DNA of 64,000 nucleotides from positions 29,275 to 93,274 of the IMG/VR virus record IMGVR_UViG_3300025141_000046; one strand, 5' to 3'. This DNA comes from a virus. The position numbers and the translations under genes were made by a program. Under the pieces are notes generated by a model that searched no databases, was not told the DNA's origin, and saw only the letters and a program-made list of their open reading frames with translations. Shown here one piece after another: positions 8,645 through 64,000 of the stretch (position 1 is its first letter; every line of letters begins with the position of its first letter).

Positions 8645-9196
8645 CTATATTTTACAATCTATAATTCCTGCACGAGAAACAATATACGCATCAATCATAT
8701 CATGTGATCTCGGATCAACAACAATCTCTCCTTTTCTAGGACCTGATTTTAATTTTTTTTCTGGCCACTTGTAATCTACATTTGTCATAGCCCAGACATA
8801 AAGTTGATCCTTAACTGGTAAGCCGCCGTCTTTTTTTCTTTTTATTTTAATACCAAGTGATTTTCTAGCAGTGTTTACATTAAAAAATATAGGCTCAATA
8901 TTAAAAATCTCAAAGCACGAAAAAGACACTATTCCATTAAACTTTGAAAGAGTTGAAATTGTCCGCGCTGATGAAAATCCTGATCTAAATGATTGAAGAT
9001 TCTCTTCTACAAATATTTTTTCAATCTTGTACTTTTTAGATATTGCTGTCAAGACATTCTTTACAGACTCACCTTTTTTAAATATTGATTTTTCCTTGCT
9101 TGTATCAATATACCCAGTTTCAACTATTTTCTCATTGATGTCGAGCACACACCACCCTGTGCAAGAAGTTGAAATATCAAGGCCAAGTGCAATCAC
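8645..9196 (-). CDS. RuvC-like Holliday junction resolvase
   Basis: LGLDISTSCTGW, IFVEE, DMIDAY acidic RNase H-fold motifs; 183 aa. Confidence 0.85.
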   Translation of the reverse strand: MIALGLDISTSCTGWCVLDINEKIVETGYIDTSKEKSIFKKGESVKNVLTAISKKYKIEKIFVEENLQSFRSGFSSARTISTLSKFNGIVSFSCFEIFNIEPIFFNVNTARKSLGIKIKRKKDGGLPVKDQLYVWAMTNVDYKWPEKKLKSGPRKGEIVVDPRSHDMIDAYIVSRAGIIDCKI

Positions 9197-11679
9197 TAGA
9201 AATCCATCTTAAATCTTAATAGCATACTATCATCAACTCTTTTCTTAATAGGTTGCGCAAGATTTGCTCGAGCTATAACATTTAGATTTTCATCGTGGAT
9301 ATTCAGAGAATCTATATACACAAATGGCCGACCCTCATCTGACGGACTATCTGACGCTGAAAGAGATAGATACGAAGGATTACTAGATGAGTTGAACATT
9401 CCTGCAGGTAGCGGGATATTCAGTATTGATACATGTGTATTCTGCTCACCCTTCATTTTGATTTCGAAGCAATCTTTACCAAAGTAAGAAAGCGATGGAG
9501 ATTTAACAATTGCAACACCTTCTTTGTATAGAATATTACCAACATTTGACCAAACTGGATTTTTACCCTCTGCATCGGATCTATACAGTGCACCGCGACC
9601 GTTATCCCTTAGTGTTATTCTTATCTTGCCATCAGATCCAGTAAGTGAGGGATCAGATACATAGAACGTATCTGTCTGAATCTGGTCTCCGTAGTAAATA
9701 TTAGATATGTCAAAGAAGCAAATTTCATTTGATGATCTATCACGCGTTCTCTGTGCTATTGTTAAAATCGGCCCAGCAGTTCCGCCTGTACTTTCCGGTG
9801 TAACACCTGCAAGGAGGCCAGCAATTGACTCCTTGCTTAGATTATCAGGCAGAGTTGCTGCATCACCGTCTAGAGCTGCATTCATATCTGCAACAGTTGT
9901 TGTTGGAAGTCCTGGAAATATCTTTCCAGACGGAATCATATTTTCTAAAGAAACTATGCTTAAATCCTTTCCTGCATGTTTTCTAAGAAATCTATCTGAC
10001 ACAGTTGAGCTTGATAGAATATACGAAAAATTAGGATTAAAATTTCCGTTATCGTTTGGCAAAAGTGTTAAATTTCTTTTCTTTATTGATCCAGTGGAGT
10101 AAGCATATGTAGTTGCACTTATATCAACAACAGTTGTATCAATTGTCGATGCTGTTAAATTTAAGCATCTTGGCATATTGTTTGTAACAAAGTCTTTTAC
10201 ATGATTTTCAAGATTCATTACAAAACCGCCTACACCAAAAGAGAAAGTTTCGTTAAACGGCTGTGTCGACTTTACATTCTGTGTCTGAAACGGTGTGATG
10301 AGCATGTCTCTCTTTCGAACGTTTGGGATAAAAAACGGTGGAACATAAAAGAGAAGATTTTTATTACTTTCTGGGGATGATGTTCCTAGAAGAGATATCT
10401 CCTCCTTTGAGATGTGTTTATCGTATATTTTTACTTCATGAATTTCTGCGTTTAAAGGATGCCTCATTGTATACACAGGGTCGATATTTGTCCCGAAGGT
10501 TAGGGTTGGCTGGACCCCTTCTTTTAAAGTCTCTAAGTTAAAAAACTTTGCTTCATTGTCACTACCCTCATAATAATTTCCCATAACAAGCGCTGCATTT
10601 GAAATATGGGAGGGCGGCATGATAGATGAAGACGGAACAACAAACGATGTAGATACTCCATCTATATCTAGACTTCCAGTTCCACTATTATAACTATTAG
10701 TACCCCATCTGACAGTGCAATGATGCCAGTTATTTTTCTTTAATGAATTGTCTCCCGATAGAAAAATAAGATCTCTTGGGTATGTCCCAAGAGATCCATA
10801 TGCTACTTCACTTGGGGATATATCTGCACTGTGACTAAGCTGTAGCATTAATCTAAATCCGTCGACCTGACCGCTTGCGTCAACACTGCTTCCAGATACC
10901 AGGGAAAGTGCAAAAGTTGATGATAGATGTAAAATTGTGCCTGCTTTAAAATCATATCCTTTATCATTAGTATATCTTGGGTTTACATACATGTCTATGG
11001 AAAAAGAGCCGGTCGGAGAGTATGGTCTTGGTAATGCTGAAGATGTTGTAAAATTTTGATAAATTATCGCAGAGTTATCTGGTATTCTTGCTGTAGATCC
11101 AATTCCCGGTGCTCCAGATGTTTGCGGTGCAGAAAAGAAATTTAAGCTGTGATAGTTTGTATATGCCATCTCACAAAGATCGTATCTAGATTCATAAAAT
11201 GTCATCAAACTATTTCTAATCGCAGATTTCTCAATCGCAACATCATTAAGCGAAAATGGCGGGTCAAATCTTGTAATAAAAATCTTTTTTGAACTTGCAA
11301 TAGGCGCTGGTGACTGATTAACACCGAGCATATAATTTTCAACCCAAGTTCTAACATCTGCTGTAGTACCGGAAATATTTGCTGCTGATACCTGGTCAAT
11401 TGCGGTCTTTAGGCTTAGAAGCATTGTGAAATCTTCGACATTAAACGGTCTAGCACTCGGGCTAGCGTTGATATCATTGCTAGCCTGTCTAGCTACACCA
11501 GGTGCTACAAGCTCTTTTATAAAAGGACTCGGCCTTCTTCGTAATGGAACTGAACCTGACGTTCCAGGCAAAATGTCTAGTGACTCTATCGGTATACTAG
11601 AGCTTAAATAATCCGTTTCAGGGTGCAGTGTTAACGAAAATTTTTCTACTCTTTCTGGAGGTATTTTAATAATTGACAT
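9196..11679 (-). CDS. Tail/baseplate structural protein with LamG (ConA-like) domain
   Basis: FSIDMYVNP...NNWHHCTVRW...IHEVKIYDKHIS LamG pattern; C-terminus VYIDSLNIHDENLNVIARANLAQPIKKR...FKMDF is paralogous to the upstream gene's C-terminus. Confidence 0.72.
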   Translation of the reverse strand: MSIIKIPPERVEKFSLTLHPETDYLSSSIPIESLDILPGTSGSVPLRRRPSPFIKELVAPGVARQASNDINASPSARPFNVEDFTMLLSLKTAIDQVSAANISGTTADVRTWVENYMLGVNQSPAPIASSKKIFITRFDPPFSLNDVAIEKSAIRNSLMTFYESRYDLCEMAYTNYHSLNFFSAPQTSGAPGIGSTARIPDNSAIIYQNFTTSSALPRPYSPTGSFSIDMYVNPRYTNDKGYDFKAGTILHLSSTFALSLVSGSSVDASGQVDGFRLMLQLSHSADISPSEVAYGSLGTYPRDLIFLSGDNSLKKNNWHHCTVRWGTNSYNSGTGSLDIDGVSTSFVVPSSSIMPPSHISNAALVMGNYYEGSDNEAKFFNLETLKEGVQPTLTFGTNIDPVYTMRHPLNAEIHEVKIYDKHISKEEISLLGTSSPESNKNLLFYVPPFFIPNVRKRDMLITPFQTQNVKSTQPFNETFSFGVGGFVMNLENHVKDFVTNNMPRCLNLTASTIDTTVVDISATTYAYSTGSIKKRNLTLLPNDNGNFNPNFSYILSSSTVSDRFLRKHAGKDLSIVSLENMIPSGKIFPGLPTTTVADMNAALDGDAATLPDNLSKESIAGLLAGVTPESTGGTAGPILTIAQRTRDRSSNEICFFDISNIYYGDQIQTDTFYVSDPSLTGSDGKIRITLRDNGRGALYRSDAEGKNPVWSNVGNILYKEGVAIVKSPSLSYFGKDCFEIKMKGEQNTHVSILNIPLPAGMFNSSSNPSYLSLSASDSPSDEGRPFVYIDSLNIHDENLNVIARANLAQPIKKRVDDSMLLRFKMDF

Positions 11680-11688
11680 GACAAGACT

Positions 11689-12945
11689 CTAGAAGTCGAG
11701 CCTCACCCTTATAGTCAAATCCTTCTCATCGTTTTTCTCTATCGGCCTAGACGTCTTTGCGACTGCGACAAGATTATCATTCTCATCGTAGAGACCAATC
11801 GTAGTAATATATGAGAATGGTTTTTGGGTTTGCTCCTGACCTGGTTCGATAACTTTAATTCTATTTGTTGTTGTATTTACGTATGTCGGATTAGAAGAGT
11901 AGTTAAACTCATCGGCCGTAGCCCTGCAGAAAACAAGGGTAGAGTTAATGTTTGTTAAATTCTGGAATGTAATTGCTGTATTTGAACCTGATGACATTCT
12001 ACATGACGCAAGGTGGTCAACGATATCGTCAATACTAGCAGATGTAAGAAGATCTGGAATAAACTGTGCTCTCGCATTTGTACCAGGGACTATTGGGCCG
12101 CCTGTTGGGCCGCCGCCAAGATATCCTGTGCCTAGACATACCTTCCCGGCTCCAAATAATGCTTCTGTTGTTACAGCTGATATTGTCCCAGATGCATGCT
12201 GTGTTCCTGATAATATTTTTGCAAGATCAAAAACACTGATGCCATGCTGATAAAACATTAGTCCAACATTTCTAGACGTGTTTGATGCATCTACTATGTT
12301 GCCAACCTCTCCTCCGAATGAGCTTAGGACATTTGTTGATGACCCAACGTCTGTATAGATAGCTGAACCTGATTCTGATGTCTGTGTTAGATTTGGCTTA
12401 TCTGTATCAATATCATGTGATGCTGTCTGATAAAATCTCATTGCAAAAGAATCTCTTTTTATCTTGTCTCGAGAGAAAAGACGCTTAAAGGAAATAAACA
12501 TTGCCTCTTCTATATTGTCAGATGCTAATGAAGAGCCTATAAACGGTGCAGTAAACCTGCTATTTGAATTACCAAGAAGAAGCTGGGCGAACTGTCTATA
12601 GTTTGAAACCTTCTCTCTCATCATTAGAGACTGAGATATGTATAAGACTTTTCCTGCTGTATCAACTCCAGTCGATGCCGATGCACAGAGCGCTGATCCT
12701 GAATATAGTCCGACTGTCATGTCAAATACAGCATTTGCAGTTTGCAATGTGTAATCTTGATCAAAGACTGTTTGAAACAAAGAGGATGTAACTCCAGGTC
12801 CCACACCTCCTGTGACAAATACTTGATATTTTTTTCTTGAAACTGTTCCTGAAATATCTGATTCTATAACATCAACTAGCTGGTTCAAATATGATCTAGT
12901 TGACTTAATGTCTGCTGCTGCGTTAAGCTGTTTATACGTACTCAC
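11689..12945 (-). CDS. Tail/baseplate structural protein
   Basis: GTG start with AGAGG; C-terminus EFNYSSNPTY...YITTIGLYDENDNLVAVAKTSRPIEK...RVRLDF resembles fibre-attachment domains; S/T/G-rich. Confidence 0.7.
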   Translation of the reverse strand: MSTYKQLNAAADIKSTRSYLNQLVDVIESDISGTVSRKKYQVFVTGGVGPGVTSSLFQTVFDQDYTLQTANAVFDMTVGLYSGSALCASASTGVDTAGKVLYISQSLMMREKVSNYRQFAQLLLGNSNSRFTAPFIGSSLASDNIEEAMFISFKRLFSRDKIKRDSFAMRFYQTASHDIDTDKPNLTQTSESGSAIYTDVGSSTNVLSSFGGEVGNIVDASNTSRNVGLMFYQHGISVFDLAKILSGTQHASGTISAVTTEALFGAGKVCLGTGYLGGGPTGGPIVPGTNARAQFIPDLLTSASIDDIVDHLASCRMSSGSNTAITFQNLTNINSTLVFCRATADEFNYSSNPTYVNTTTNRIKVIEPGQEQTQKPFSYITTIGLYDENDNLVAVAKTSRPIEKNDEKDLTIRVRLDF

Positions 12946-12963
12946 TTAAGGTTCCTCTTATCT

Positions 12964-13671
12964 TTAAAAAACATTCACATTAAAACTTATAAATTGGCCT
13001 GAATTATAGCCTGATACTGTTACAACCCTCGAAACAACGCTATTGTTTCCTTCAGTGTGTGAATAAGTGTTAAAAATATCCCCTGCAACTTCTTTTACAA
13101 CGATAGAAAATGTAACCTTTGAAAGATTTGCAGAGTCAATAGATGCATTACATGGAATAGTGTATGTTGCAATATTATAATTATCAACAGTATCAGGAAT
13201 AACATTCTTAACAGTCATAAATGTATAATCAAGTGTCACTCTATACGAGTAATCTGTATTGTCAACATCAACTGTTGTTCCGTTTGGTGCTGTCTGTTTG
13301 ATAGTAACTGACTGTACTGTAGATCCTCCTACTTTTCCCCTGTACAAGCTCATTGTATTTGATGTAAGGGACGTTTCAAGAGCAAGTATTGGCAAAATAT
13401 ACAAGCTATTATTATTAAGACTCAAATTTCTATATTTCACACCTAGATAGCCAGTTGTACATGCCTCAAGAACAGGTGTGTTCTTTTCTATCTTCTCTTT
13501 GCCTACAGTTCTTCCAAACTGCTCTATAATGCTATAATCAACTTCATCATCAGCGAGAGCAAACTTAGCTATTGAAAAATTTCCAACACCGTTGGCTAGT
13601 AGCTCTCTACCCTTATCAGTTAAAACAGCGTCTAAAATTATATTATTTGTAGAATGATCTAGGAAACCCAA
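12964..13671 (-). CDS. Tail/baseplate structural protein
   Basis: TTG start with AAGGAG RBS; N-terminus MGFLD...ILDAVLTDKGRELLA...KFALADDEVDY resembles tail-collar/fibre N-terminal motifs; beta-rich C-terminus. Confidence 0.7.
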   Translation of the reverse strand: MGFLDHSTNNIILDAVLTDKGRELLANGVGNFSIAKFALADDEVDYSIIEQFGRTVGKEKIEKNTPVLEACTTGYLGVKYRNLSLNNNSLYILPILALETSLTSNTMSLYRGKVGGSTVQSVTIKQTAPNGTTVDVDNTDYSYRVTLDYTFMTVKNVIPDTVDNYNIATYTIPCNASIDSANLSKVTFSIVVKEVAGDIFNTYSHTEGNNSVVSRVVTVSGYNSGQFISFNVNVF

Positions 13672-13731
13672 TTTAAACTCCTTACCTGATTATATATTAC
13701 GATAATCAACTTCTGTAAATCTATTCGTTAA

Positions 13732-15753
13732 CTAGAAGATAGTTTTAACTGTTGCTGATGTCATCGGAACATCAGCAACTTCACCTGTTTGATCTGATAT
13801 AGCTATATCGAACGTTTGTGCATTTTGTAAATCAATATTAATTATTTGAAGCTTATACATGTCAGAAATTAATCTAAGTGATGTATCTACCTTAACAGAA
13901 TCTTTCCCTTCACCAGCTGTATTCGTCTTAAGAACATCATAATACTCTGGGTCAAAAAATACTCTCATTCGTGTCGACTCAGAGCTTTTAATTGTGTCAA
14001 CAAAAAGATCAGTCTTTAAATATAGATTAGGATAAGATTTTGGAGCCCCGGGGGGTGAGATTCTCTTTCTAACAATTTTATTTTTAAAACTATTAAAAGA
14101 TACTAAAACTTGCTCTGAGTATTCAGAAGTTAAACCTCGTGCGTCAACGCATGCCATTGCGTAGATATAACTCTCACTTCTTTTAAAGTCGAGGTCCTTA
14201 TAGTGCTTTCTTGGACCGCGAACTTGGTAAATCTTTTCAGGCGGTGCTATTTCAAGCGGGACTACTTTTGATGTAGACATATCAAAATCATATTCAGCGA
14301 GCAACACAAACGATTCTTCGATGCTTCCTCTTCTTAGTATTTGATATCTTACAACATCTCTTTGTGGGTTCGTAGGCTCTTCCCAAAATATGTCAAGCGA
14401 GTAATCCTGAAAATTATAATTAAATCTTAGGTTTTGAGGTGGTTCTGGGGGTATTCTTTCAATTGCAACAGTTTGAGTTTTTACGCCTTCTGAGGCCACC
14501 ATGCTAATTGCAAAAACTATCTCATCTGGTGTAGCGCCATCTGGATCTATTGCAGATGCTTCATATGCAGTTAAATATAAGACTTTTACGTTATAGAGAT
14601 ATGTTGCACCATATCTTATGTCTGAGTCTAAAATATTAAAATCTCCGTAGGTATCAATAATAATCGGCTCAAGCTGCCTAGTTGACATCTCGCTGTCTGC
14701 TCCAGCCTGTATCTCGGTTTTTTCTACATAGTAGCCTATAGGATAAGAAGATTCATCAATTACACTTTTACCTAATGTTGCATCTTCCAATGTTAGTGTA
14801 TACACGGGCGCCATCTCAAGCTCAAACTCAGAAGAATCAACTGCATATGAAGAAGCCTGGGCGACATACATATCCTGAATTAATTTCACGTCAGATTCGA
14901 CACTCATCAGCTCATCTTGATAAATATTTCCCCTGTCCTCTAGGGCACCCAAGACAACATTTGAAATTACTGCATTGTTAATTGAAAATCCAAATTCAAC
15001 AAATCTAACATCTCTCAGCGCCTCGGCAATAGTTTCAAATCTCGCATCAGCTGGTGCATAAGCAACACCTTTTGGTTGACTATTTGAAAGAGCCTTTCGA
15101 ATAGTTGAAGTAGTCTGAGAAGACTCTGCCATGGGGGAGAAGAACTGACTTGTCAAGTTGGTCATAAACTGACTATCTGTATCAGATTTTGCATATGCAT
15201 CAGAAAATGTTACAGAGCCCGTAATTTCATTGTAAAATGTATCATCAACCTGATTATCCTTGAGTATGATTGTTGAAAATCTTGAGTTTGCGATTGCACC
15301 TTCAAAAACAATTTTATCTGTCGAGGTGTTTATTAGTGTTTTTCCTTTTGCTATTGCATAATCCTTAAGAAAGCTATCAGTAGAAAGTGACGGTGGTGGC
15401 TGACTTCTTATTTTTAATATTACTGACCTTGGAGATTTATTTTGCTTTTTTATAAATTCAACATTCTGGTCACTCGATGCGATATTTACTATTGTTTGTT
15501 CACCTGTTGAAACTGTTCTCTCGTCCCTCGTGTAATAGTTATAGTGAAACTCTGACGAAAGTGAAAGAATTTCAGGAAGGTCAATAAATGTCGGCGGTGA
15601 TGATGGATATGTAGATGTACTAGTAAGCCCAAGCTCATCTGAAAGATACTCTGAGAATGATTGAATATCTAAGATTGCTGCATCTGTATACTCTTCTGCG
15701 CTAACACTCTTTTCACTTGTATCTGCATGAACTGCTGTTTCGTCAGTTGCCAT
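13732..15753 (-). CDS. Acidic structural protein with fibronectin type III-like domain(s)
   Basis: PPEPPQNLRF...LDIFWEEP...YQILRR...YIYAMACVDARGLTSEYSE is an FN3 pattern; a second D...YGATYLYNV unit lies upstream. Confidence 0.65.
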   Translation of the reverse strand: MATDETAVHADTSEKSVSAEEYTDAAILDIQSFSEYLSDELGLTSTSTYPSSPPTFIDLPEILSLSSEFHYNYYTRDERTVSTGEQTIVNIASSDQNVEFIKKQNKSPRSVILKIRSQPPPSLSTDSFLKDYAIAKGKTLINTSTDKIVFEGAIANSRFSTIILKDNQVDDTFYNEITGSVTFSDAYAKSDTDSQFMTNLTSQFFSPMAESSQTTSTIRKALSNSQPKGVAYAPADARFETIAEALRDVRFVEFGFSINNAVISNVVLGALEDRGNIYQDELMSVESDVKLIQDMYVAQASSYAVDSSEFELEMAPVYTLTLEDATLGKSVIDESSYPIGYYVEKTEIQAGADSEMSTRQLEPIIIDTYGDFNILDSDIRYGATYLYNVKVLYLTAYEASAIDPDGATPDEIVFAISMVASEGVKTQTVAIERIPPEPPQNLRFNYNFQDYSLDIFWEEPTNPQRDVVRYQILRRGSIEESFVLLAEYDFDMSTSKVVPLEIAPPEKIYQVRGPRKHYKDLDFKRSESYIYAMACVDARGLTSEYSEQVLVSFNSFKNKIVRKRISPPGAPKSYPNLYLKTDLFVDTIKSSESTRMRVFFDPEYYDVLKTNTAGEGKDSVKVDTSLRLISDMYKLQIINIDLQNAQTFDIAISDQTGEVADVPMTSATVKTIF

Positions 15754-15766
15754 TTTATACTATCCC

Positions 15767-19882: not shown

Positions 19883-19885
19883 CTG

Positions 19886-22645: not shown

Positions 22646-22646
22646 T

Positions 22647-23816: not shown

Positions 23817-23838
23817 TTTTCACCCGTCATGTTATCTA

Positions 23839-23867
23839 ATTATACTATTTAAAAAATTATTTGAAAA
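23839..23867 (-). promoter_or_regulatory. Putative sigma70-like promoter
   Basis: Minus strand TTTTCA-N17-TATAAT in the intergenic gap; very AT-rich context, so a chance match is possible. Confidence 0.35.
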
Positions 23868-23877
23868 TATGAATTTT

Positions 23878-24573: not shown

Positions 24574-24613
24574 TTCTTAAGCTGCCCCTGTAGAAATATT
24601 TAGGTAATTTATT

Positions 24614-46567: not shown

Positions 46568-46573
46568 AGATTC

Positions 46574-48010: not shown

Positions 48011-48014
48011 CTTG

Positions 48015-50585: not shown

Positions 50586-50600
50586 TTTTTAAAAATCCAA

Positions 50601-51842: not shown

Positions 51843-51901
51843 TTGTTCTCCAGCAGGTAAATAGTACACATTATTATGTGCCTGTTAAAGATAGAAACGT
51901 G

Positions 51902-52744: not shown

Positions 52745-52810
52745 TGTTTCTCCTACTTTTATTCTACACAAAAATATTGCAATTTTTAAGAATATAAGCC
52801 TAAATTTTAT

Positions 52811-53431: not shown

Positions 53432-53445
53432 CCTGTCGCCCTTTA

Positions 53446-55165: not shown

Positions 55166-55199
55166 CTATGACCTCTTTTTATATTATCTAGCATAGCTA

Positions 55200-56147: not shown

Positions 56148-56168
56148 ATTAGTCTCCTAAAATATTAT

Positions 56169-56816
56169 TTAATAATTTTCAATTGGTGTAATATTATACC
56201 ACCAGTAGGGATGAGTTAAAACATACAAGTTTTTTAAATCTTTTTTTGTTAAATTTTCATAAAAAGATCCGTCTCTCCACATGCAGCTACTATCTGATAT
56301 GTATTTGAACTTTTCAAGCAACATATTGTCGTATGCTTGCGTTAGATTTTTTTCGCTATCAATATAAAAAGATTTTGTCCTTGTAGGCTCGTGTGGACAA
56401 ATTGACTCTATCGATATGTCAAAAATATCCTCTAAAATATTAATCTCTTTTTTTAAAAAATCACAAATAGGCTTATTAATCAAGTGATAAAAATCAGACT
56501 CATAATGTAAACCTATTTCATGACCCATATTTTTAATTTCCCGGATTTTATCAAAATCTTTCAGGCACAGCGGATTATAGCCGTGTGAGTGAAGCCTAAT
56601 AAAATAAGTTGCATTGATATTGTTTTCATTTTCTAGGGTGGCCATTTTGACGGCTGTATCTACCTGCGTGTCGACATCATGCCTTAGTATAGCCGACCCT
56701 TTTTCTTCCGACTTTTTCCAGTCTTTAAGCGTATAAAATTTAAATCCTAGATTATTAGCTAACTTGAGACACCTATCATAATTTGCTAAGCTAAAATTGT
56801 CTTCTTGACTTTCCAT
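56169..56816 (-). CDS. Polysaccharide deacetylase-like protein (WbmS-like)
   Basis: ILRHDVD, ATYFIR, GHEIGLHYE, HEP, YISDS, LTHPYWW. Confidence 0.72.
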   Translation of the reverse strand: MESQEDNFSLANYDRCLKLANNLGFKFYTLKDWKKSEEKGSAILRHDVDTQVDTAVKMATLENENNINATYFIRLHSHGYNPLCLKDFDKIREIKNMGHEIGLHYESDFYHLINKPICDFLKKEINILEDIFDISIESICPHEPTRTKSFYIDSEKNLTQAYDNMLLEKFKYISDSSCMWRDGSFYENLTKKDLKNLYVLTHPYWWYNITPIENY

Positions 56817-57472
56817 AGCCCCTCATGTAAAATTAAATCTACGACGCTGATGTGATTATCTTCTATTACTGGTAAATCAAATTGATTTTCCATATAAGCT
56901 AATTCAATTCCGTGATTTTCAAAAACTTGCTCACTTTGATAATTTTTTGCACCTTGTCCCGAAATATATGTTTTCCCGTCACACAGGTTAATAATTTCAA
57001 TTAGCATATATTGATTTTTCGCATCTCTTTCAAATGATAAACTAGAAGATTTTACAAGCTTGGTATCTATTTCAAGATAATCACAAATAATCTTTATAAG
57101 ATCAATATTAAAATTTGAAAGATTTATTGTACTGTGAGATAGTTTTTTTTCATAATGATTTATAATACTATCTAAAAATTTAGTTTCTCTAGTTTTTGAA
57201 TGTCTCATTTTAAGATGTTTTATATGCTTTTTTAAATTTGATGTATTGCACTCTACGTCTAGTATTTTTTTACTGTAAGAATCCTTTCCAATCGGACATG
57301 ACAGCCAGAAGCTACTCTTAAAATTCTTATCAGCTGAAAATCTATTTCTATTAAAGAATGAATTTTTTGAGCATTTTGCTGTATCTAGAAAAACAAATAT
57401 ATCGCTAGCATGAATTTTTTTAAAAAATCCTGCCCATGGAAGAAAGTTAGGCTGGTGTATTCCAACCTTCAT
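56786..57472 (-). CDS. wbqC: WbqC-family protein (putative glycyl/acyl transferase)
   Basis: IHQPNFLPWAGFFKKI..SDIFVFLD, NRNR, YISGQGAKNY, SVVDLI. Confidence 0.88.
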   Translation of the reverse strand: MKVGIHQPNFLPWAGFFKKIHASDIFVFLDTAKCSKNSFFNRNRFSADKNFKSSFWLSCPIGKDSYSKKILDVECNTSNLKKHIKHLKMRHSKTRETKFLDSIINHYEKKLSHSTINLSNFNIDLIKIICDYLEIDTKLVKSSSLSFERDAKNQYMLIEIINLCDGKTYISGQGAKNYQSEQVFENHGIELAYMENQFDLPVIEDNHISVVDLILHEGLWKVKKTILA

Positions 57473-58275
57473 CCTAAACTTTCTCTGATCTTTTTAGCAA
57501 TATTCTCTGCTATTGGACAATTTCCCACAATTCCTCTTGAAACATACGCTGGTTGTTCATAAACTACATTTGGATAATGTCCTTGATCTGGACCTCTCAA
57601 TCCAAGCTCAGACTTAATTCCCTCCATGTGTAGTTTCATTTGCTCGTACGCCATTAGACAAAGAGGCTCAGCAAGTCTAAAATTAAAACCTATTCTAACA
57701 TGGTTGTATTTACCGTCCTGACCTTGATTACAAATAGACCGAATCTTTTTTGAATTTAGGCACGAACCTTTTGGAATACAGATCATTCCGCCTTCAAATG
57801 TTGAAATATTCTTAGTCTTGTAGAATGAAAATGTTCCGCAGTCTGACATCATTCCTGCATATTTTCCTGATTCATGCTCTGCACCAAAGGCTTGAGCTGT
57901 ATCTTCTATGACTACCAGGTTATGCTTTGCAGCTACAATGCCTATTTTTTCCATAGCACAAATGCGACCATAAAGATGGACAGGAATAATTGCCCTAGTC
58001 CTATCTGTTATAGCTTTTTCAATCTTTTCAGGATCTATTAGATATGTTTCAGGATCTATATCAACAAATACAGGCGTGCCGCCAGCAATTATTATAGCAT
58101 TAGATGTTGCAATATAGGTAAACGGAGTTGTGATAACTTCATCGCCTTGCTGTAGATCTAGAGACCATAACGGTGCAATTAGAGCCGATGTTCCATTGTT
58201 GACAGCTATACAATCTTTCAGATCAAATCTTTCTTTGACATAGTTTTCAAATATATTTCTTACTATTGCTGGCAT
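57469..58275 (-). CDS. DegT/DnrJ/EryC1/StrS sugar aminotransferase (compact, 268 aa)
   Basis: AVNNGTSAL, GDEVITTPFTYIAT, IIPVHLYG, IEDTAQAFGA, FSFYKTKN (PLP Lys), EGGM, GFNFRL. Confidence 0.9.
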   Translation of the reverse strand: MPAIVRNIFENYVKERFDLKDCIAVNNGTSALIAPLWSLDLQQGDEVITTPFTYIATSNAIIIAGGTPVFVDIDPETYLIDPEKIEKAITDRTRAIIPVHLYGRICAMEKIGIVAAKHNLVVIEDTAQAFGAEHESGKYAGMMSDCGTFSFYKTKNISTFEGGMICIPKGSCLNSKKIRSICNQGQDGKYNHVRIGFNFRLAEPLCLMAYEQMKLHMEGIKSELGLRGPDQGHYPNVVYEQPAYVSRGIVGNCPIAENIAKKIRESLG

Positions 58276-58745
58276 TATTTTTTTCTCAGTAGCCTTGCTG
58301 GATTTCCAACGACAACAGTGTTATCATCTACGTTTTTTGTCACTACTGATCCTGCGCCGACCAATGCGTTGATACCTACTGTATTACCGCAGATAATAGT
58401 AGAATTTGCACCGATACTGCTGCCATCCCTGAAGTGTGTTTCTTTGAATCTTTCCTTCCAGTCTCCGCTAGCAACTGGTTCAATGTCATTTGTTGTTATA
58501 ACATTTGGACCGATGAAAACATTATTACCTATGACGACACCCTCGTAAAGCAATGAATGATTTTGAACTAAACAATTATCACCAATAATGACATTATTTC
58601 CAATATGGACACCCTCACCAATAATGCAATTTTTTCCAATTTTTACACCCGACATTACATGAGAAAATGCCCAAATCTTTGTATTTTCACCAATGTCTAC
58701 TTCAAAATCAACTATGGCAGTTTCATGTATAAAAATATTGGTCAT
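58275..58745 (-). CDS. Hexapeptide-repeat sugar N-acetyltransferase (WbpD/WlbB-like)
   Basis: FIHETAIVD...IGENTKIW...VFIGPNVITTND...SIGANSTI...VGAGSVVTKNV...GNPAR. Confidence 0.9.
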   Translation of the reverse strand: MTNIFIHETAIVDFEVDIGENTKIWAFSHVMSGVKIGKNCIIGEGVHIGNNVIIGDNCLVQNHSLLYEGVVIGNNVFIGPNVITTNDIEPVASGDWKERFKETHFRDGSSIGANSTIICGNTVGINALVGAGSVVTKNVDDNTVVVGNPARLLRKK

Positions 58746-58766
58746 ATTCTCTAGCTTTTATTAATA

Positions 58767-58795
58767 ATTCTATATTTCACAAGTAAAGTTTACAA
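58767..58795 (-). promoter_or_regulatory. Putative sigma70-like promoter for the acetyltransferase/aminotransferase genes
   Basis: Minus strand TTGTAA-N17-TAGAAT about 20 nt upstream of the ATG at 58745. Confidence 0.45.
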
Positions 58796-59046
58796 AGAAC
58801 TTTACTGCATCGAGGTAAGTTTTATTAATAAATTTTTGTGGACCTTTTGCAAACCAGATTTTGTTGTCAGAGAAACAAGTCTTTTGGCGCAATTCTAATT
58901 TTTGATTTATAAAATTTTAACTCCACAGGATCTGCTGCAAAAATAATTTCCGGCTTAAATCCAGATATGCAAAGATTTTGAATTCCTGCCTGAGTTTTCC
59001 AGCGCTTAAAGTTATATGCAAATACTCCAATTCTTAAGTTTGTCAT
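58770..59046 (-). pseudogene. Probable gene remnant(s): 59-aa truncated ORF overlapping an out-of-frame C-terminal fragment
   Basis: ATG 59046 MTNLRIGVFAYNFKRWKTQAGIQNLCISGFKPEIIFAADPVELKFYKSKIRIAPKDLFL-TGA (58867); a shifted frame reads SDNKIWFAKGPQKFINKTYLDAVKFFVNFTCEI-TAG (58770). Confidence 0.5.
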
Positions 59047-59063
59047 TTTTTTCTCAAATGCTT

Positions 59064-59792
59064 TTATTTAGATCTTATTTTTTCTAAAATACTAGAAGCA
59101 TCTTTAATTGAAATTTTATTATCAATTATAATCTTTTTACAATCTTTGTCATAATAGAAAGCCCCGGGCCAGGGCGAAGCAAGTGCCCTAATTAAATTAT
59201 ACACCTGATCTTCAGTCATAGTAGGAAGTATTTCTCCATCACAGGGATATCTTTTTCTACATTCAAATTCATCACCAGTTATATCCTGGTCACGAAAAGT
59301 CAAGCTTTTAGATTCTAACTGGCTAGAAAGCTGAAGAAGGATATCAGCTGAAGTTGATATTCCATTTTTCAATACATCATTGGCGTCATCATGTATTGAA
59401 ATTTTAAACTTTTTCTGAATTATTATTTTTCCACCGTCTATCTTGGGAGAAAGAGTATGAAGTGTTACTCCAGATATTTTTTCCCCATTTATTATTTGCC
59501 AATTAAGTGCATGTGATCCTGCGTAATTTGGCAATAGTGATCCATGAAAATTGGCTGCAATGAGCTTTGGAATAGACAGTATTTCAGACTGTATTATCCT
59601 GCTATAGTAGAAGCTTAAAATTATATCAGGAGAATAGTCATTGCATTTTTTTAAAAATAAGGGATACTGAGTATCTACTCTTTTAGGATGATTATCAGGA
59701 TAGATAAAAAGAATATCATCAAATATAGTTTCTGCTAAATCTATGAATTCTTTATATGCTTTGTTTCTTGTTGTGAATATTATTGCTTTCAT
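59064..59792 (-). CDS. Sugar N-formyltransferase (ArnA/Fmt-like)
   Basis: PDIILSFYY, NFHGSLLPNYAG, SGVTLH, IDGG, LIRALASPWPGAF. Confidence 0.9.
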   Translation of the reverse strand: MKAIIFTTRNKAYKEFIDLAETIFDDILFIYPDNHPKRVDTQYPLFLKKCNDYSPDIILSFYYSRIIQSEILSIPKLIAANFHGSLLPNYAGSHALNWQIINGEKISGVTLHTLSPKIDGGKIIIQKKFKISIHDDANDVLKNGISTSADILLQLSSQLESKSLTFRDQDITGDEFECRKRYPCDGEILPTMTEDQVYNLIRALASPWPGAFYYDKDCKKIIIDNKISIKDASSILEKIRSK

Positions 59793-60954
59793 CTAGAATC
59801 TTATTTCCTGAAAGGTTAAGACACTTAACTAAAGTTTCTTCACATACATCGAAGAAATCTTTGTCCCCCCAGTTGTGATTTTTTATAAAATTTTCCTTAC
59901 TTGTTCTTAGTACAGCCTCAGATATCTTTTTATTTAAGTCATTGGAAATACTTTCGTCATAGACCATGCACGACTCTTTATAAAAATCTGGAATAGTAAC
60001 CGGCTTATTACAAATTGTCAGACACCGTGCTCCAATACTTTCACCGAGAGTCCTAGGGTATCCTTTAGGTTGTCCAAAAACTCTCATATCCATGGGTATA
60101 AGTGATATTTTACTAAGACATTTAATTTCGTGTGCTAGATCTTGGCACACAGACCCAATCAAGTAATAGTCTAAACCTTTTGCGTCACAGACTTTAATAA
60201 TTTTATTAACATAGTCGATGTGCTGTGTTGTTCCCATTATTACTATCTTGAAGTCTTTGACAATGTTTGGATCTATTTGATTAAACATGTTTAGCTGATT
60301 CTTTACATGCCACAGTGTCCCGCTTACAGCTATTAAATCTTTCTTTTTATTTTTTATCAAAAATTTATTAAAAAATCTCTGCATGTGAGGATCAGGAGGC
60401 TCACAGAGCTCTTCTTCTTCAAAGTAGTAATTAGCAAATTGATAATTTGGCTTATATGACATAGTTCTAACATTGATAACAAACTTAGAATTTTCCACAG
60501 TCTGTCTATCATCAGGTCTTCTCATCATATTCATTAGAGCAGAAGACCTTGCTATGATTATGTCATATTTCTCTTCTAGCTTTGCTTTTTTGACTACTTT
60601 ATTTCCGTCTATTGTAAATCTCTTATATGCTTTAGAGCCTTTATCATATGTTAAATCTATCATTGATCCCATAAGTGATTTTGACGCATACGATGGCAGG
60701 CCAAGGGCACCCAGTTCATACTGGTATGGTGAAAAATGAGAAAATAATATTTTTATAGGATTTTCAATATTAATAGCTTCTGGATTTATTAAATCAATTA
60801 GCTCACTATTGTCAAAAAAATCTCCCTTCGTTCTGTGACTATTAAACTCTCTTGGGTGGAGTCTTATATCTTCCCTCTTTGACCACTTATCAAAAAGAAC
60901 TGGATTGTCATGTAAGAATCTAGATAGATCTATATCAACTTTTCTCTGCATCAT
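59752..60954 (-). CDS. Hypothetical protein, probable divergent GT-B glycosyltransferase
   Basis: SGTLWHVKNQ and YPRTLGESIGARC resemble the GT4 K-N and P...E..A.G motifs; context. Confidence 0.5.
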   Translation of the reverse strand: MMQRKVDIDLSRFLHDNPVLFDKWSKREDIRLHPREFNSHRTKGDFFDNSELIDLINPEAINIENPIKILFSHFSPYQYELGALGLPSYASKSLMGSMIDLTYDKGSKAYKRFTIDGNKVVKKAKLEEKYDIIIARSSALMNMMRRPDDRQTVENSKFVINVRTMSYKPNYQFANYYFEEEELCEPPDPHMQRFFNKFLIKNKKKDLIAVSGTLWHVKNQLNMFNQIDPNIVKDFKIVIMGTTQHIDYVNKIIKVCDAKGLDYYLIGSVCQDLAHEIKCLSKISLIPMDMRVFGQPKGYPRTLGESIGARCLTICNKPVTIPDFYKESCMVYDESISNDLNKKISEAVLRTSKENFIKNHNWGDKDFFDVCEETLVKCLNLSGNKILDESNNIHNKKQSI

Positions 60955-60964
60955 TTTTAAAAAA

Positions 60965-61663
60965 TTATCCGATATTGCTTTGTATCACTAAGTCTTCGTC
61001 TGTGTTTCTTATTTCGTTTAAAAAGTTCTCAAAAAATTCAGACGGAGATGGTCCTAGCCAATCATTGTTAAATACTTCAAAATCAACACTATCTTTCCAT
61101 ACAATAAACACTTCTTCTATTGCGGGATGTGATATATTGCCAATTGGATCAAATGCTTTATTTTCTACAATTGTCACCTTTGGAAAAAATTTCAGCTTCT
61201 TATTTTTTATTGTAATGATCCATCTGTGATGACTATACCCTCTAATTGTTCCGTCTAGCTCAAATCTTTTAAACTCTCTATATTTTGATGGAAAAGATAT
61301 AATCCCAGATTTAGAAATTTGATTGATTTTTTTTAAAACATATGCTGGATGCGCAATATCTTCAAGGGTATGAGTACAGATACAATAATCATATTTTCCA
61401 TTCTCTTCCACATCTTGATCAACTTTTTCCCACAAAAATGGATCATTAATATTTCCTGAGAAGTGCTTTATATTGGGCTTGTTGACATCTCTAAAGTCCA
61501 TCGTTGCATCGATAAAGTCAAATTTATCACTAACATGCTTTTCTTTTCCTCCTCCGATATCAATAATCCTATATTCAGGATTGCTTTTTTTAATTTCCCT
61601 AAGTCGATTAAGCTCTGCGACTTTTTTATTAGCTATGTAGCCTAGTCCTGCTTCAACTATCAT
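60965..61663 (-). CDS. Class I SAM-dependent methyltransferase-like protein
   Basis: IIDIGGG, YDYCICTHTLEDIAHP, HHRW. Confidence 0.7.
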   Translation of the reverse strand: MIVEAGLGYIANKKVAELNRLREIKKSNPEYRIIDIGGGKEKHVSDKFDFIDATMDFRDVNKPNIKHFSGNINDPFLWEKVDQDVEENGKYDYCICTHTLEDIAHPAYVLKKINQISKSGIISFPSKYREFKRFELDGTIRGYSHHRWIITIKNKKLKFFPKVTIVENKAFDPIGNISHPAIEEVFIVWKDSVDFEVFNNDWLGPSPSEFFENFLNEIRNTDEDLVIQSNIG

Positions 61664-61679
61664 TTTGTATCACCCATAT

Positions 61680-62438
61680 TTAAAACTCCATGCACTGTTC
61701 GATAATCCTAGACTCAAACTCTTCTAAGTCTTCAAGATTATAATTAAATTTTCCAAAATGAACCTCTCTATCATAATGTATGTGATATATTCTTGGTTCC
61801 ATATGATCTTCTCCAAATTCATTCTTTAAGTTTCTAACTTTTTCCCTAGTAGCTTTTCCCCTAATGTTATATTCAAAAGGAAATGTATGTATTTTAACGC
61901 TGCTATTCCAAAGCGATACTCTGAGGCTTACCTGGTCCCAGCCGTTTGTCTGCTGATAGTATTTATAAAAATACTTCTGCCACATATCTAGAAATTCCCT
62001 TGTTGCATCAGATGAGTTATATGCCATTATTCCGCCGTTAAACTCAGAAAATCCATAAGGTATTGCCTCATACTCCGGTACAAGCTTTGAATATTTCAAT
62101 CTCTTTCTAGCATAGTCATGAACAAGACCTACATCAAATCTATCAAGCACGTCAAACATGTCTGATATATTTCTAACAATAACTGTATCTGAATCTAGAT
62201 ATACTGTTTTTGCAAATGGTGAACTTCCAACAAAATCAACCTTGACTCTAATGTGTTGCGGTTCTATCTTTCCGTAAATATCAACCAATCCGGAAAAATC
62301 TTCTGTTCTTGGCTGATCTGTAAATAATGCTACTGGCTCACTGTTGAATCTTTTTAACGTCTTGATTGACATTAATGCCTCTTTCGTAAAAGATTCACCA
62401 AATGCTATATACAAAAACCCTTTATCAATTTTTTCCAA
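61680..62438 (-). CDS. GT-A fold nucleotide-diphospho-sugar transferase (GT8-like)
   Basis: SPFAKTVYLDSDT (DxD), EFNGGIM, WDQVSLR, FEYN. Confidence 0.82.
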   Translation of the reverse strand: MEKIDKGFLYIAFGESFTKEALMSIKTLKRFNSEPVALFTDQPRTEDFSGLVDIYGKIEPQHIRVKVDFVGSSPFAKTVYLDSDTVIVRNISDMFDVLDRFDVGLVHDYARKRLKYSKLVPEYEAIPYGFSEFNGGIMAYNSSDATREFLDMWQKYFYKYYQQTNGWDQVSLRVSLWNSSVKIHTFPFEYNIRGKATREKVRNLKNEFGEDHMEPRIYHIHYDREVHFGKFNYNLEDLEEFESRIIEQCMEF

Positions 62439-62441
62439 AAT

Positions 62442-63167
62442 TTATTCCTCACCTTTCTTAAATTTAAAAATCGCTGAAAGATCTTCGGAAAGATCATTAT
62501 CTATATCATAAATTGCTATATCACGCTTTGAAACTTCTTTAATGTATTGTAAAAAATTGTCATGTGTAAACGTATCTTGCTTATGTGTGCAATGTATATA
62601 GTTTGGATGACCGCGGTGGGGACCATGAGTTCCTTTCCAGCATGGAAGAATATAAAATAAAATTGCATCCGGATTAATATGTTTCTTAATTGATTCAAAG
62701 TGAAGCGATGGATTTGAAAGATGTTCTAGGTTATGACTACTATAGACAACATGAACTTTCTCATTTTGAAAAATATCTGATATTTTTAGTGATCTCTCTA
62801 TTTGAAAGTTTTCAACATTTCCCTGAAATATCTCATTAAAAAATGAGGGTGCTAGATCAATGCCTATACAATTTATTCTATTGTCTATGCTCTTAATGAA
62901 GTCTATCTCATTGATATCTCTGCAACCGCAAGCTAAAATGTTTATCTTCTTTTCACCCTTAAAGGACCTCGACAATAGTAATCTAAATTTTTCTCTAAGA
63001 TTTTCTAAATAATCTCTATTTTTTTCACCATGCCATTTCTCATGGGACCTTTTCTTTCGAGTTTTAATGTGTTCGTGACCTGTATTAAACTGGTAGTGTT
63101 CATTAACTTTTATATTATCATAATAAAAATCATCATGTAATAATGTGTAAGTTTTATAATTTTTCAT
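62442..63167 (-). CDS. Class I SAM-dependent methyltransferase-like protein
   Basis: Likely start MKNYK at 63167 (ATGA overlap); ILACGCR, IGIDL, VYSSHNLEHL. Confidence 0.68.
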   Translation of the reverse strand: MKNYKTYTLLHDDFYYDNIKVNEHYQFNTGHEHIKTRKKRSHEKWHGEKNRDYLENLREKFRLLLSRSFKGEKKINILACGCRDINEIDFIKSIDNRINCIGIDLAPSFFNEIFQGNVENFQIERSLKISDIFQNEKVHVVYSSHNLEHLSNPSLHFESIKKHINPDAILFYILPCWKGTHGPHRGHPNYIHCTHKQDTFTHDNFLQYIKEVSKRDIAIYDIDNDLSEDLSAIFKFKKGEE

Positions 63168-64000
63168 TTTTTTGCCCTGCTTATTTTCAAAATTTCTCTG
63201 TAATATCGAAATGCCCATTCATGAGGATCATAATTCTTCTTTAAAAAATCTTTTGCATCTTTGGCTATGATATTTCTATTTATAGGATCTGATAGCCTTG
63301 AAAGAGATCGGAGCCACCCTTTTTCACTGTGTGCTACATATCCGTTCTTCTCATCACCAAATAGATGAAAATTGCTTGGACTAAAATCAGCAACTACAGG
63401 AACACCAAGTGCCATAAAAGCTAATGCTCTGCCGTTATTTGTCTTATTTTTATATCTCATAATGAAATCAGTATTAAACTTTCCGTATTCGTTATTTACA
63501 TCTTTTGACAATGAAGTCAAGTCATGGACACCAGGACAAATTCCAATATCACAAGACTTTATATCTTCTTTTATTGTATCAATATTCCACTTTTTATAAA
63601 CTATTGGTATATCAGGCTTGCCAAGTTCCGGAGTCCAGTTTATTTCATCTTCTGTCTTTTCACTTATGATATTTAACTCAATATCTCTACTTTTTGAAAA
63701 ATTTTCAAGTGCAGATTTTAATCCGCCTACGAATGAAAACAAGTGAGGAGTCCAGCCGTGATAACATATCTTCAAAATATCAACTTTGTCATGCTCAACG
63801 ATACTGCTGTTGTGATATAGAGATTCTATATGTGCATTTAGTATTACATTTTTATGGAAAGAAAGACTATCTGCCTCCTCTAGTGAGCCAACCATGACAA
63901 AATCAAAATCAACAGAAGTCAAATCTCTCGGTGGCGTGATTGTACCGACAATTATACTCGGGTTTACTAGTTTAATCTGGTGAAAAACTGAATGAATATA
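63164..64000 (-). CDS. Probable GT-B glycosyltransferase (5' end outside the window)
   Basis: Frame stays open to 64000; YHG, CDIGICP, KNKTNNGRALAFMALGVPVVAD, NGYVA...W...L. Confidence 0.7.
   Translation of the reverse strand, partial: YIHSVFHQIKLVNPSIIVGTITPPRDLTSVDFDFVMVGSLEEADSLSFHKNVILNAHIESLYHNSSIVEHDKVDILKICYHGWTPHLFSFVGGLKSALENFSKSRDIELNIISEKTEDEINWTPELGKPDIPIVYKKWNIDTIKEDIKSCDIGICPGVHDLTSLSKDVNNEYGKFNTDFIMRYKNKTNNGRALAFMALGVPVVADFSPSNFHLFGDEKNGYVAHSEKGWLRSLSRLSDPINRNIIAKDAKDFLKKNYDPHEWAFRYYREILKISRAKK

Follow-up and report, generated by a model that had tools for sequence, protein, structure and literature searches.

Recurrent [ST][GA]S tripeptides on Far-T4 phage tail proteins as candidate acceptor sites for phage-encoded virion glycosylation

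Glycosylation of phage-particle proteins is documented in few groups only, and to our knowledge no short sequon has been reported in this context. An initial annotation of a 64,000-nucleotide stretch of viral DNA (the window) proposed one: the tripeptide [ST][GA]S, recurring on tail and baseplate proteins beside genes for a soluble glycan pathway, was read as an acceptor site for phage enzymes. The locus raises the question of whether the tripeptide is truly in excess and what might read it.

A 93-kb contig from an uncultured marine T4-like phage ends with this window, on whose minus strand lie the eight motif carriers, the wedge gene, the GT4 pair with its nuclease neighbour and the tailoring cassette described below. 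In terminase, portal and capsid trees, this phage formed one clade with G001, Mel-JY01, immuto, LR756508 and RM378 (100/100 support), apart from T4, KVP40, Syn9 and HTVC008M. Its structural and packaging genes thus group with RM378, which places it in Far-T4, the RM378 clade that is separate from the T4, cyano-T4 and pelagiphage groups (Roux et al. 2015, PMC4360716).

Tripeptide excess on tail and baseplate proteins

The densest carrier is a 512-aa baseplate-associated all-beta protein (41517..43055), whose gene adjoins that of a gp6-like wedge protein. It contains 13 motifs, as originally counted; the rough estimate of about one expected from composition was computed as 1.23 (z=10.7), and 0 of 2000 shuffles reached 13. 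The count of 16 in a 709-aa modular fibre (27941..30070), conserved in its N-terminal third and variable in its C-terminal part, was likewise reproduced, against 2.9 expected (z=7.9). When residues were shuffled within blocks of 12 or 30, z stayed at about 10 and 8, respectively; local composition is therefore not the cause of the excess.

Six further carriers had been credited with roughly 6-11 motifs each, a range that one of them exceeds. Four were individually significant under local-block shuffling (p 0.003-0.02): an 827-aa LamG-like tail protein (9196..11679; 8 motifs, p=0.004), a 418-aa tail protein (11689..12945; 6 motifs, p=0.007) whose C-terminal 90 residues are common to the 827-aa protein, a 1511-aa LamG-containing tail protein (32520..37055; 12 motifs, p=0.017) and a 1194-aa baseplate protein in the gp7 position with a LamG domain (Pfam Laminin_G_3; 37930..41514; 9 motifs, p=0.012). 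A 792-aa Gly/Ala-rich fibre-like protein (25201..27579) and an 810-aa fibre-like protein (30078..32510), with 7 motifs each, were not individually significant in the same test (p=0.07 and p=0.18).

The terminase, the SbcC-like protein and the portal had no motif, in agreement with the annotation, and the gp6-like inner baseplate wedge protein (43063..44913; PHROG 219) was a motif-poor internal contrast, with 1 against 1.9 expected. In four large Ser-rich proteins (13732..23816), 6 sites were counted where 9.7 were expected; tagging thus does not extend to all large late proteins.

Across the whole 93-kb contig, SGS (56 versus 23 expected) and TGS (38 versus 15) were the most over-represented frequent tripeptides. 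Pooling this contig with Mel-JY01, immuto and RM378, and leaving out two low-complexity proteins, gave 193 SGS against 76 expected (z=13.5) and 141 TGS against 59 (z=10.6), ranking first and second among all tripeptides with at least 15 expected. Neither was over-represented in T4, Syn9, Ma-LMM01, HTVC008M and KVP40 (ratios of 1.33 and 0.89). Codons at the motif follow background usage, and the signal is therefore at the protein level. The hydrophobic flanks noted earlier were also borne out, at frequencies of 0.56 at position -1 and 0.50 at +3 compared to a background of 0.33; these residues are mostly L, I, V, M, F and A, and no preference for Asp or Glu was seen in the flanks. The excess of [ST][GA]S on tail and baseplate proteins holds over shuffled sequences and is confirmed.

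Conservation and placement of the motif

Virion orthologues from the clade were compared for observed and expected motifs: 52/16.9 in the contig studied here, 50/16.3 in G001, 38/9.0 in Mel-JY01, 29/8.9 in immuto and 6/2.6 in RM378. Those of control phages contained 1-4, with about 2 expected. Orthologues at 25-40% identity kept the excess while most sites did not coincide, and 22 of 27 motif columns in the sheath alignment were unique to one sequence. The motif may have spread convergently over the tail proteins, as the annotation had supposed. Clade-wide, the family of the 512-aa protein held 676 motifs against 107 expected (79 homologues) and that of the 1194-aa protein 544 against 125 (40 homologues).

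Within the clade, motif hydroxyls were kept more than other Ser/Thr residues (p=2e-6). In the 512-aa protein, 11/13 sites were kept as [ST][GAS][ST] in 118 homologues, and motif hydroxyls were retained in 89-92% of homologues compared to 64% for other Ser/Thr. Some proteins were depleted: the gp6-like protein had 49 motifs against 102 expected in 80 homologues, the gp25-like protein 6 against 14.5, and GT4b, one of the glycosyltransferases considered below, 3 against 8.9.

Carriers span different folds (CBM/Ig-like, LamG, sheath-insert and capsid-insert), and no sequence domain common to them was detected, which upholds the earlier view that no single repeat structure explains the motif. The AF2 model of the 512-aa protein is all-beta (pLDDT 82.5), with Foldseek matches to CBM- and Ig-like sandwiches, and places 9/13 sites within or at the ends of beta-strands. 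The monomer model of the 709-aa fibre is poor (pLDDT 66.9, residues 411-600 below 50), and for this reason six of its sites cannot be placed. In the sheath, 15/17 sites fall within the 180-660 insertion; none of the 5 capsid sites, which are N-terminal and internal, is in the HK97 core, and the tail tube has 0. The annotation had expected surface loops; the motifs were instead found at or inside beta-strands with hydrophobic flanks.

A GT4 pair and a sugar-tailoring cassette

Two adjacent genes encode the GT4-family glycosyltransferases GT4a (49413..50585) and GT4b (50601..51869). They score 35.7 and 43.5 bits against Pfam Glycos_transf_1 (gathering cut-off 26.4), EX7E is intact in both, and EGFGLxxLE shows at least 95% conservation across 44 GT4a and 39 GT4b homologues, which places both among the retaining GT4-type enzymes of CAZy. 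Neither matched a named family. GT4b weakly matches chlorovirus B736L (3oy2, E=4.5e-6). The two proteins are predicted to bind as a heterodimer, with an ipSAE of 0.84 versus 0.00 for the best control; the mark used for this score is reached by 58/80 solved complexes and 2/110 mismatched pairs. Three runs shared at least 95% of contacts, with partner pLDDT of at least 91.

Profile-HMM searches detected GT4a in 5/5 genomes with the excess and in 0/6 without a strong excess, and GT4b homologues are present in immuto, Mel-JY01, RM378 and LR756508. The co-occurrence suggested by the annotation was thus observed: the excess travels with GT4a and is absent from five phages that lack the pair. All motif-excess genomes fall in one clade, however, so the GT4a association rests on one gain and one partial loss. 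RM378 has GT4a, yet its sheath and capsid motifs are at expectation; LR756508 lacks GT4a and shows a mild excess in three tail proteins (12 versus 4.3).

Every locus extending as far as the pair retains it, and the pair occurs in phages of cyanobacterial, Bacteroidota and Rhodothermus hosts (three phyla). It is the only non-structural, non-replication gene set of the 93-kb contig common to immuto, Mel-JY01 and RM378, where it sits among replication genes; the immuto annotation calls one of its two GT4 proteins 'RfaG'. A PD-(D/E)XK nuclease (Pfam; 51902..52771) is a conserved syntenic neighbour, a position that implies no role in the system. It adjoins the pair in all IMG/VR loci reaching it and in immuto and Mel-JY01; in RM378 the ORF found there carries the annotation 'similar to DNA polymerase I' and has no BLAST match to the nuclease.

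From 52811 to the contig end at 64000, Pfam and NCBIfam identified a soluble sugar-tailoring cassette. It encodes a sulfotransferase, two SDR epimerase/dehydratases, a short UDP-sugar dehydrogenase, WbqC, a DegT aminotransferase, an LbH acyltransferase, an ArnA-like formyltransferase, two methyltransferases, a GT8-like protein and two weak GT-like ORFs. The tailoring set is full; no glycan enzyme has a TM-like segment, as claimed earlier. At least three clear and two probable glycosyltransferases had been proposed; the two GT4 proteins are clear, while the GT8-like protein is marginal (23.3 bits versus a cut-off of 22) and the two GT-like ORFs are weak. No flippase, polymerase or lipid-carrier priming transferase was found in the window, which ends with the contig. 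Cassette content varies between relatives, and the sulfotransferase had no match in any of the 80 loci compared, few of which extend that far.

Known systems, competing readings and significance

We give about an even chance that [ST]-[GA]-S is an acceptor sequon for phage-encoded O-glycosylation of virion proteins. The excess, its occurrence on outer virion proteins of different folds and its co-occurrence with the GT4 genes favor this reading; strand placement and restriction to a single clade weigh against it. The tripeptide between hydrophobic residues would act as a short tag for O-glycosylation in the host cytoplasm, with a GT4a-GT4b heterodimer, both subunits catalytically competent, putting the first sugar or sugars on its Ser/Thr. 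For elaboration, the variable cassette upstream may then supply nucleotide sugars of unusual kinds (amino, formyl, acetyl, methyl, sulfate). The tag would be built up on outward-facing parts, namely sheath and capsid insertion domains, outer baseplate proteins and fibres, and selected against in the inner baseplate and some cytoplasmic proteins. That the GT4 enzymes act on the motif, which residue they would modify and whether the glycans would serve shielding, stability or adsorption are inferred. Neither enzyme could be matched to a named family, and both may act on an acceptor other than the motif.

Several known systems resemble parts of this scheme. GtfA and GtfB, which prime serine-rich repeat adhesins with O-GlcNAc, are adjacent cytoplasmic GT-B proteins that act as a complex on S-[A/G/V]-S-type sequences, GtfB being non-catalytic; here the complex is predicted only, both GT4 subunits keep EX7E, the tripeptides are single and scattered in folded beta domains rather than in long disordered Ser-rich repeats, and the accessory Sec system is absent. 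GT4a and GT4b scored 15.2 and 17.7 bits against the GtfA equivalog (TIGR02918, cut-off 574.6), and neither is assigned to it. Chloroviruses and mimiviruses, giant viruses with glycosylated capsids and fibrils, also use their own soluble glycosyltransferases and nucleotide-sugar tailoring enzymes. With these, and independently of ER/Golgi-type machinery of the host, they build virion-protein glycans that contain unusual amino, formyl and methyl sugars. Their hosts are eukaryotic and chlorovirus glycans are N-linked at atypical sequons; beyond generic GT4 similarity, there is no evidence of common descent. In eukaryotic proteoglycan xylosylation the acceptor is also a Ser beside Gly, but that site needs acidic flanks and those found here are hydrophobic.

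We know of no short sequon for virion glycosylation in mycobacteriophages. As there, phage-encoded glycosyltransferases would decorate virion proteins; in the account of Freeman et al. (2023) given in PMC12619734, the glycans are on C-terminal tails of capsid and tail-tube subunits. Compared with that account, the motif here is internal, concentrated in baseplate, fibre and sheath-insert domains, with capsid sites N-terminal and internal and none in the tube, so a system of that type does not fit. In the hyperglycosylation of autotransporters by BAHT heptosyltransferases (TibC/TibA, AAH/AIDA-I), too, a soluble cytoplasmic GT-B enzyme adds many sugars to Ser before Gly/Ala, and does so at turns in a beta-rich, folded surface protein; TibC modifies Ser rather than Thr where these lie in ..NSGG.. 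and ..TSAA.. sequences within a folded beta-helix (PMC4358343). The relative Mel-JY01 encodes a GT4a-like domain fused to a methyltransferase and a true TibC homologue (PDB 4rap, E=2e-69; Cys pattern kept); the gene for this fusion immediately follows those for a collagen-like protein of G-[ST]-S repeats and for an SGS-rich fibre. No such BAHT homologue (TibC-like domain, four-Cys iron finger) was found in the 93-kb contig, G001, immuto or RM378. The candidates here also differ in being GT4 rather than GT9-like, and in having virion proteins of many folds as putative substrates instead of one adhesin encoded beside the enzyme.

A serious rival, which we consider unlikely, is that the motif is structural: a strand edge, bulge or tight turn centred on Gly/Ala, with a Ser/Thr cap, and favored by the beta-sandwich and fibre modules of the lineage, with the GT4 pair and cassette unrelated. 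Sites at strand starts, ends and interiors, seen in the 512-aa model and wherever the 709-aa model is confident, together with the hydrophobic residues at -1 and +3, suit such an element; some motifs fall in a LamG region, fibre N-termini show a 6-residue motif spacing, and within the clade positions are kept as well as would be expected of structural residues. This does not sit easily with the lack of a detectable common domain or with T4, KVP40, Syn9 and HTVC008M, which have comparable beta-rich tail and fibre proteins without the excess. Moreover, deep orthologues keep density rather than positions, and depletion of the gp6-like and gp25-like proteins below composition is unexpected from a neutral structural preference.

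Such turnover at constant density, depletion elsewhere and hydroxyl conservation point to a trans-acting reader without naming it. The motif might then be a tag for another lineage-specific factor (phosphorylation, acylation, sulfation, cross-linking or an assembly chaperone), the link to GT4a reflecting shared ancestry only, and the near confounding of GT4a distribution with phylogeny, the mild excess in LR756508 and the presence of a sulfotransferase and two methyltransferases are in keeping with this. We judge it distinctly improbable: neither a kinase nor any other candidate reader came to light, relatives do not conserve the sulfotransferase, the GT4 pair is the sole shared gene set of its kind, and the fusion in Mel-JY01, to a glycosyltransferase family proven to act on protein Ser, speaks for glycosylation. 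Very improbable, in our estimate, is that the glycan genes modify the host envelope or phage DNA, in the manner proposed for cyanophage LPS genes and T4 glucosylation, with virion proteins unglycosylated and the motif excess unrelated. DNA glucosylation and serotype conversion are the best-known activities of phage glycosyltransferases (PMC12619734), and the neighboring nuclease, the replication-gene setting in relatives and the 'RfaG' label agree with such roles. Immuto DNA digests, however, contained only dA, dC, dT and fdPreQ1 (bioRxiv 10.1101/2023.04.13.536721), with no glycosylated nucleoside, making DNA an unlikely target. Against an envelope role stand the solubility of all the enzymes and the missing flippase, polymerase and priming transferase in the window, and a core pair shared across hosts of three phyla fits a phage-borne acceptor better; the motif excess would also be left unexplained.

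Returning to virion O-glycosylation, a literature search on Mel-JY01, immuto and RM378 found no glycan, mass shift or stain reported for lineage members; all three are in culture, so the prediction is directly testable. More tentatively, and at somewhat below even chance, we propose a virion glycosylation code across the abundant aquatic phages of Far-T4, in which a conserved heterodimer of two active GT4 enzymes would read a three-residue sequon in a hydrophobic strand-edge context on folded outer proteins. Exchangeable nucleotide-sugar cassettes would give each phage its own coat, and the sequon would be gained, lost and avoided under selection, like N-glycan sites on animal-virus envelope proteins. 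Should the tag prove real, glycans that are self-made and vary by strain would cover the tails, sheaths and capsid decorations of thousands of Far-T4 phages from marine, freshwater and hot-spring habitats. This would provide a compact sequon and a two-protein soluble transferase for glyco-engineering. It would also matter for adsorption and stability, for how grazers and host defences recognize these phages, and for the question of why large phages have polysaccharide genes that are commonly attributed to remodelling of the host envelope.

Motif counts and lineage restriction

The window forms the final 64 kb of one 93,274-bp viral contig, and all of its genes lie on the minus strand. Its terminase, portal, capsid and gp6-like proteins identify the source phage as a distant T4-like myovirus. 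Among cultured phages it is closest to Microcystis phage Mel-JY01, Flavobacterium phage immuto and Rhodothermus phage RM378. In terminase, portal and capsid trees, the contig, these three phages, the IMG/VR contig G001 (160 kb) and the uncultured LR756508 (484 kb) formed a single clade with 100/100 support, with T4, KVP40, Syn9 and HTVC008M outside it. The clade corresponds to the 'Far-T4' phages described by Roux et al. (PMC4360716).

The initial annotation proposed that the tripeptide [ST][GA]S is over-represented in tail proteins as an acceptor for phage-encoded glycosyltransferases. Its hand counts of 13 in the baseplate-associated 512-aa protein (41517..43055, minus strand) and 16 in the 709-aa fibre (27941..30070, minus strand) were exact on recount. 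Those for six secondary carriers were near our recounts of 8 (9196..11679, 827 aa), 6 (11689..12945, 418 aa), 7 (25201..27579, 792 aa), 7 (30078..32510, 810 aa), 12 (32520..37055, 1511 aa) and 9 (37930..41514, 1194 aa, gp7 position), and the terminase, SbcC-like protein and portal again gave 0 each. Enrichment held against composition-shuffled controls, with z=10.7 for the 512-aa protein and z=7.9 for the 709-aa fibre. Shuffling in blocks of 12 or 30 residues changed little for either protein, which rules out local composition as the cause of the excess. In these local shuffles four of the six secondary carriers reached significance on their own, the exceptions being the 792-aa and 810-aa proteins. 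Under a first-order Markov null, a ratio of 1.2-1.4 remained in the lineage, compared to 0.8-1.1 in the controls.

SGS and TGS were the top over-represented among frequent tripeptides of the whole contig. When the contig was pooled with Mel-JY01, immuto and RM378, two low-complexity proteins being excluded, SGS ranked first (z=13.5) and TGS second (z=10.6), the next tripeptide having z=7.3. TGT, NGS and DGS showed no enrichment, and this is therefore a true tripeptide effect. A DNA-level origin was ruled out, as the 133 sites derive from 91 distinct 9-mers and motif codons mirror background usage; selection therefore acts at the protein level.

Genome-wide observed/expected ratios were 1.85 for the contig, 1.55 for G001, 2.05 for both immuto and Mel-JY01, and 2.2 for RM378, with 2-7 proteins per genome at Poisson p<1e-3. 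Control ratios were 0.79 (T4), 1.16 (Syn9), 0.99 (Ma-LMM01), 1.37 (HTVC008M) and 1.21 (KVP40), and none of these five genomes had a protein at p<1e-3. As motif counts in T4 gp7, gp10, gp12 and gp34-37 were at or below expectation and the other four controls lacked any significant protein, a general property of T4-type tails was ruled out. The motif excess is a trait of this lineage.

Motif carriers and site conservation

Motif carriers comprise the baseplate proteins after gp6, LamG-bearing tail proteins, fibres, both sheath paralogues, a gp13-like adaptor and the capsid protein. The motif had been described as spread over unrelated folds, and indeed all-against-all BLAST found no sequence domain common to the carriers, whose folds include LamG and CBM/Ig-like sandwiches; a single promiscuous domain was thereby rejected as its source. 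Fifteen of the 17 sheath sites fall inside an insertion at 180-660 relative to the sheath profile (P ~4e-4 by hand arithmetic, the segment being 46% of the length), and none of the five capsid sites falls within the part that matches the HK97 core. The two sheath paralogues, encoded upstream of the window at 11466..14561 and 14596..17805 of the contig, are adjacent and intact; each exceeds 1000 aa, and they are 33% identical by BLAST, with most motif sites in the large middle insertion.

Across 80 IMG/VR loci, the motif was enriched in the 512-aa family (676 observed, 107 expected) and the gp7-like family (544 and 125), and depleted in the gp6-like (49 and 102; 43063..44913, minus strand, in the window), gp25-like (6 and 14.5) and GT4b (3 and 8.9) families. 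These sequences are related, so that independence is overstated, but the split between enriched and depleted families is clear despite this. Four consecutive large Ser-rich proteins at 13732..23816 (673, 1371, 919 and 389 aa) differ from their neighbours in being unenriched (6 observed, 9.7 expected); they matched no known family, and BLAST recovered no counterpart in immuto, Mel-JY01 or RM378.

The 512-aa protein has more than 2,000 metagenomic homologues; tblastn against cultured phages gave no match, and BLASTP detected weak homologues in Mel-JY01 and immuto. Among 118 homologues at 53-75% identity, 11 of its 13 sites were kept as [ST][GAS][ST], and motif hydroxyls were kept in 89-92% of homologues versus 64% for other Ser/Thr (p=2e-6).

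The GT4 pair and the sugar-tailoring cassette

GT4a (49413..50585) and GT4b (50601..51869), both on the minus strand, are clear GT4-family proteins in which EX7E is conserved, and neither matched a named equivalog. Both are soluble, in agreement with the earlier description of enzymes lacking membrane spans. Together with a PD-(D/E)XK nuclease (51902..52771, minus strand) they were present in every IMG/VR locus reaching far enough, and they are adjacent also in immuto, Mel-JY01 and RM378. The Mel-JY01 GT4b homologue (83441..84932) is divided between two ORFs of 190 and 302 aa; the division may be genuine or may stem from a frameshift or a sequencing error.

The suggested co-occurrence of motif enrichment with the GT4 pair was borne out. 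Profile HMMs detected GT4a in all five strong-excess genomes and not in LR756508, T4, Syn9, Ma-LMM01, HTVC008M or KVP40, but LR756508 retains a mild excess without GT4a. This genome, nested within the clade, was chosen as an out-of-sample positive for its GT4b, which the HMMs also detected, and proved to be GT4a-less with a weak excess (ratio 1.36, no significant protein). Its sheath, adaptor, capsid and 512-aa homologue held 2 sites versus 2.2 expected, and three other tail proteins held 12 versus 4.3. It thus represents a partial, not a clean, co-loss of GT4a and the excess. GT4b adjoins a nuclease homologue there (LR756508.1 305432..306748) with no detectable GT4a, and so can persist alone.

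The predicted GT4a-GT4b complex scored an ipSAE of 0.84, versus 0.00 for the best control, a level that 58 of 80 solved complexes attained but just 2 of 110 mismatched pairs. Runs had at least 95% of contacts in common, with partner pLDDT of at least 91, and docked the GT4b C-terminal tail on GT4a residues 241-249. The prediction supports binding between the two proteins.

No flippase, polymerase or lipid-carrier primer was found in the window's part of the sugar-tailoring cassette (52811..64000, minus strand), the contig ending at 64000. An ArnA-like formyltransferase (59064..59792; matching the N-terminal domain of ArnA at E=4e-44), a UDP-sugar dehydrogenase and SDR (54326..56147) and a DegT aminotransferase (57469..58275) jointly resemble the UDP-4-formamido-4-deoxy-arabinose (Ara4FN) route. 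The dehydrogenase ORF (54326..55165, 279 aa) matches model positions 71-296 of 413, without the N-terminal Rossmann start and C-terminal domain, and the DegT ORF (268 aa) matches profile positions 29-235 of 360; truncation, splitting or an unusually compact architecture could account for both. Two weaker GT-like ORFs (59752..60954 and 61680..62438) had no significant PDB sequence match. A sulfotransferase-domain protein (52811..53431) had a counterpart in 0 of 80 related loci, few of which reach that far, a distribution consistent with an exchangeable tailoring module.

Candidate acceptors and competing readings

A 1227-aa protein of Mel-JY01 (PP395634.1, L102:4747-8430) combines a GT4 domain, which is closest to GT4a (E=2e-9), with a middle region that has no assignment, a class-I methyltransferase and a full-length homologue of the TibC/BAHT protein O-heptosyltransferases (PDB 4rap, E=2e-69), with the four-Cys pattern kept. 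Its gene directly follows those of a collagen-like protein of 805 aa with G-[ST]-S repeats (635..3052) and of an SGS-rich fibre (3065..4591). To our knowledge, no BAHT domain has previously been described in a phage. Enzymes of the TibC family attach glycans to Ser, but not Thr, on a folded beta-helix adhesin, at mapped sites within ..NSGG.. and ..TSAA.. (PMC4358343).

Like our contig, immuto carries both GT4 enzymes along with a glycan cassette, and digests of its DNA contained only dA, dC, dT and fdPreQ1 (bioRxiv 10.1101/2023.04.13.536721); DNA is therefore disfavoured as the target. As the hosts of the cultured relatives come from three phyla, a phage-borne acceptor would be favoured over one in the host envelope.

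The motif could instead be a structural element of strand edges. Placement in surface loops had been expected; in the 512-aa model (pLDDT 82.5) four sites lie in coil or helix caps, but most are at or in strands (four starting strands, three ending them, two mid-strand). Interpretable sites of the 709-aa fibre were similar; six could not be placed because its AF2 model is too poor over residues 411-600. Given the hydrophobic residues at -1 and +3, both motif hydroxyls would point away from the core. A turn or edge motif suits the modelled context just as well as a tag read on folded proteins. Orthologues of the sheath, adaptor and 512-aa families at 25-40% identity are still enriched with most sites unaligned, a turnover possibly exaggerated by insertion domains that align poorly; such a pattern would be expected if number or density were selected, not fixed structural positions. 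We consider a strand-edge role rather unlikely, and recognition of the motif by some other reader, for which the mild excess in GT4a-less LR756508 leaves room, less likely still.

We conclude that the motif excess is genuine, specific and conserved, and that it shows the behaviour of a tag with a trans-acting reader. The best-supported reading, on circumstantial evidence, is glycosylation of these proteins by a GT4a-GT4b heterodimer, and we give it about an even chance of being correct.
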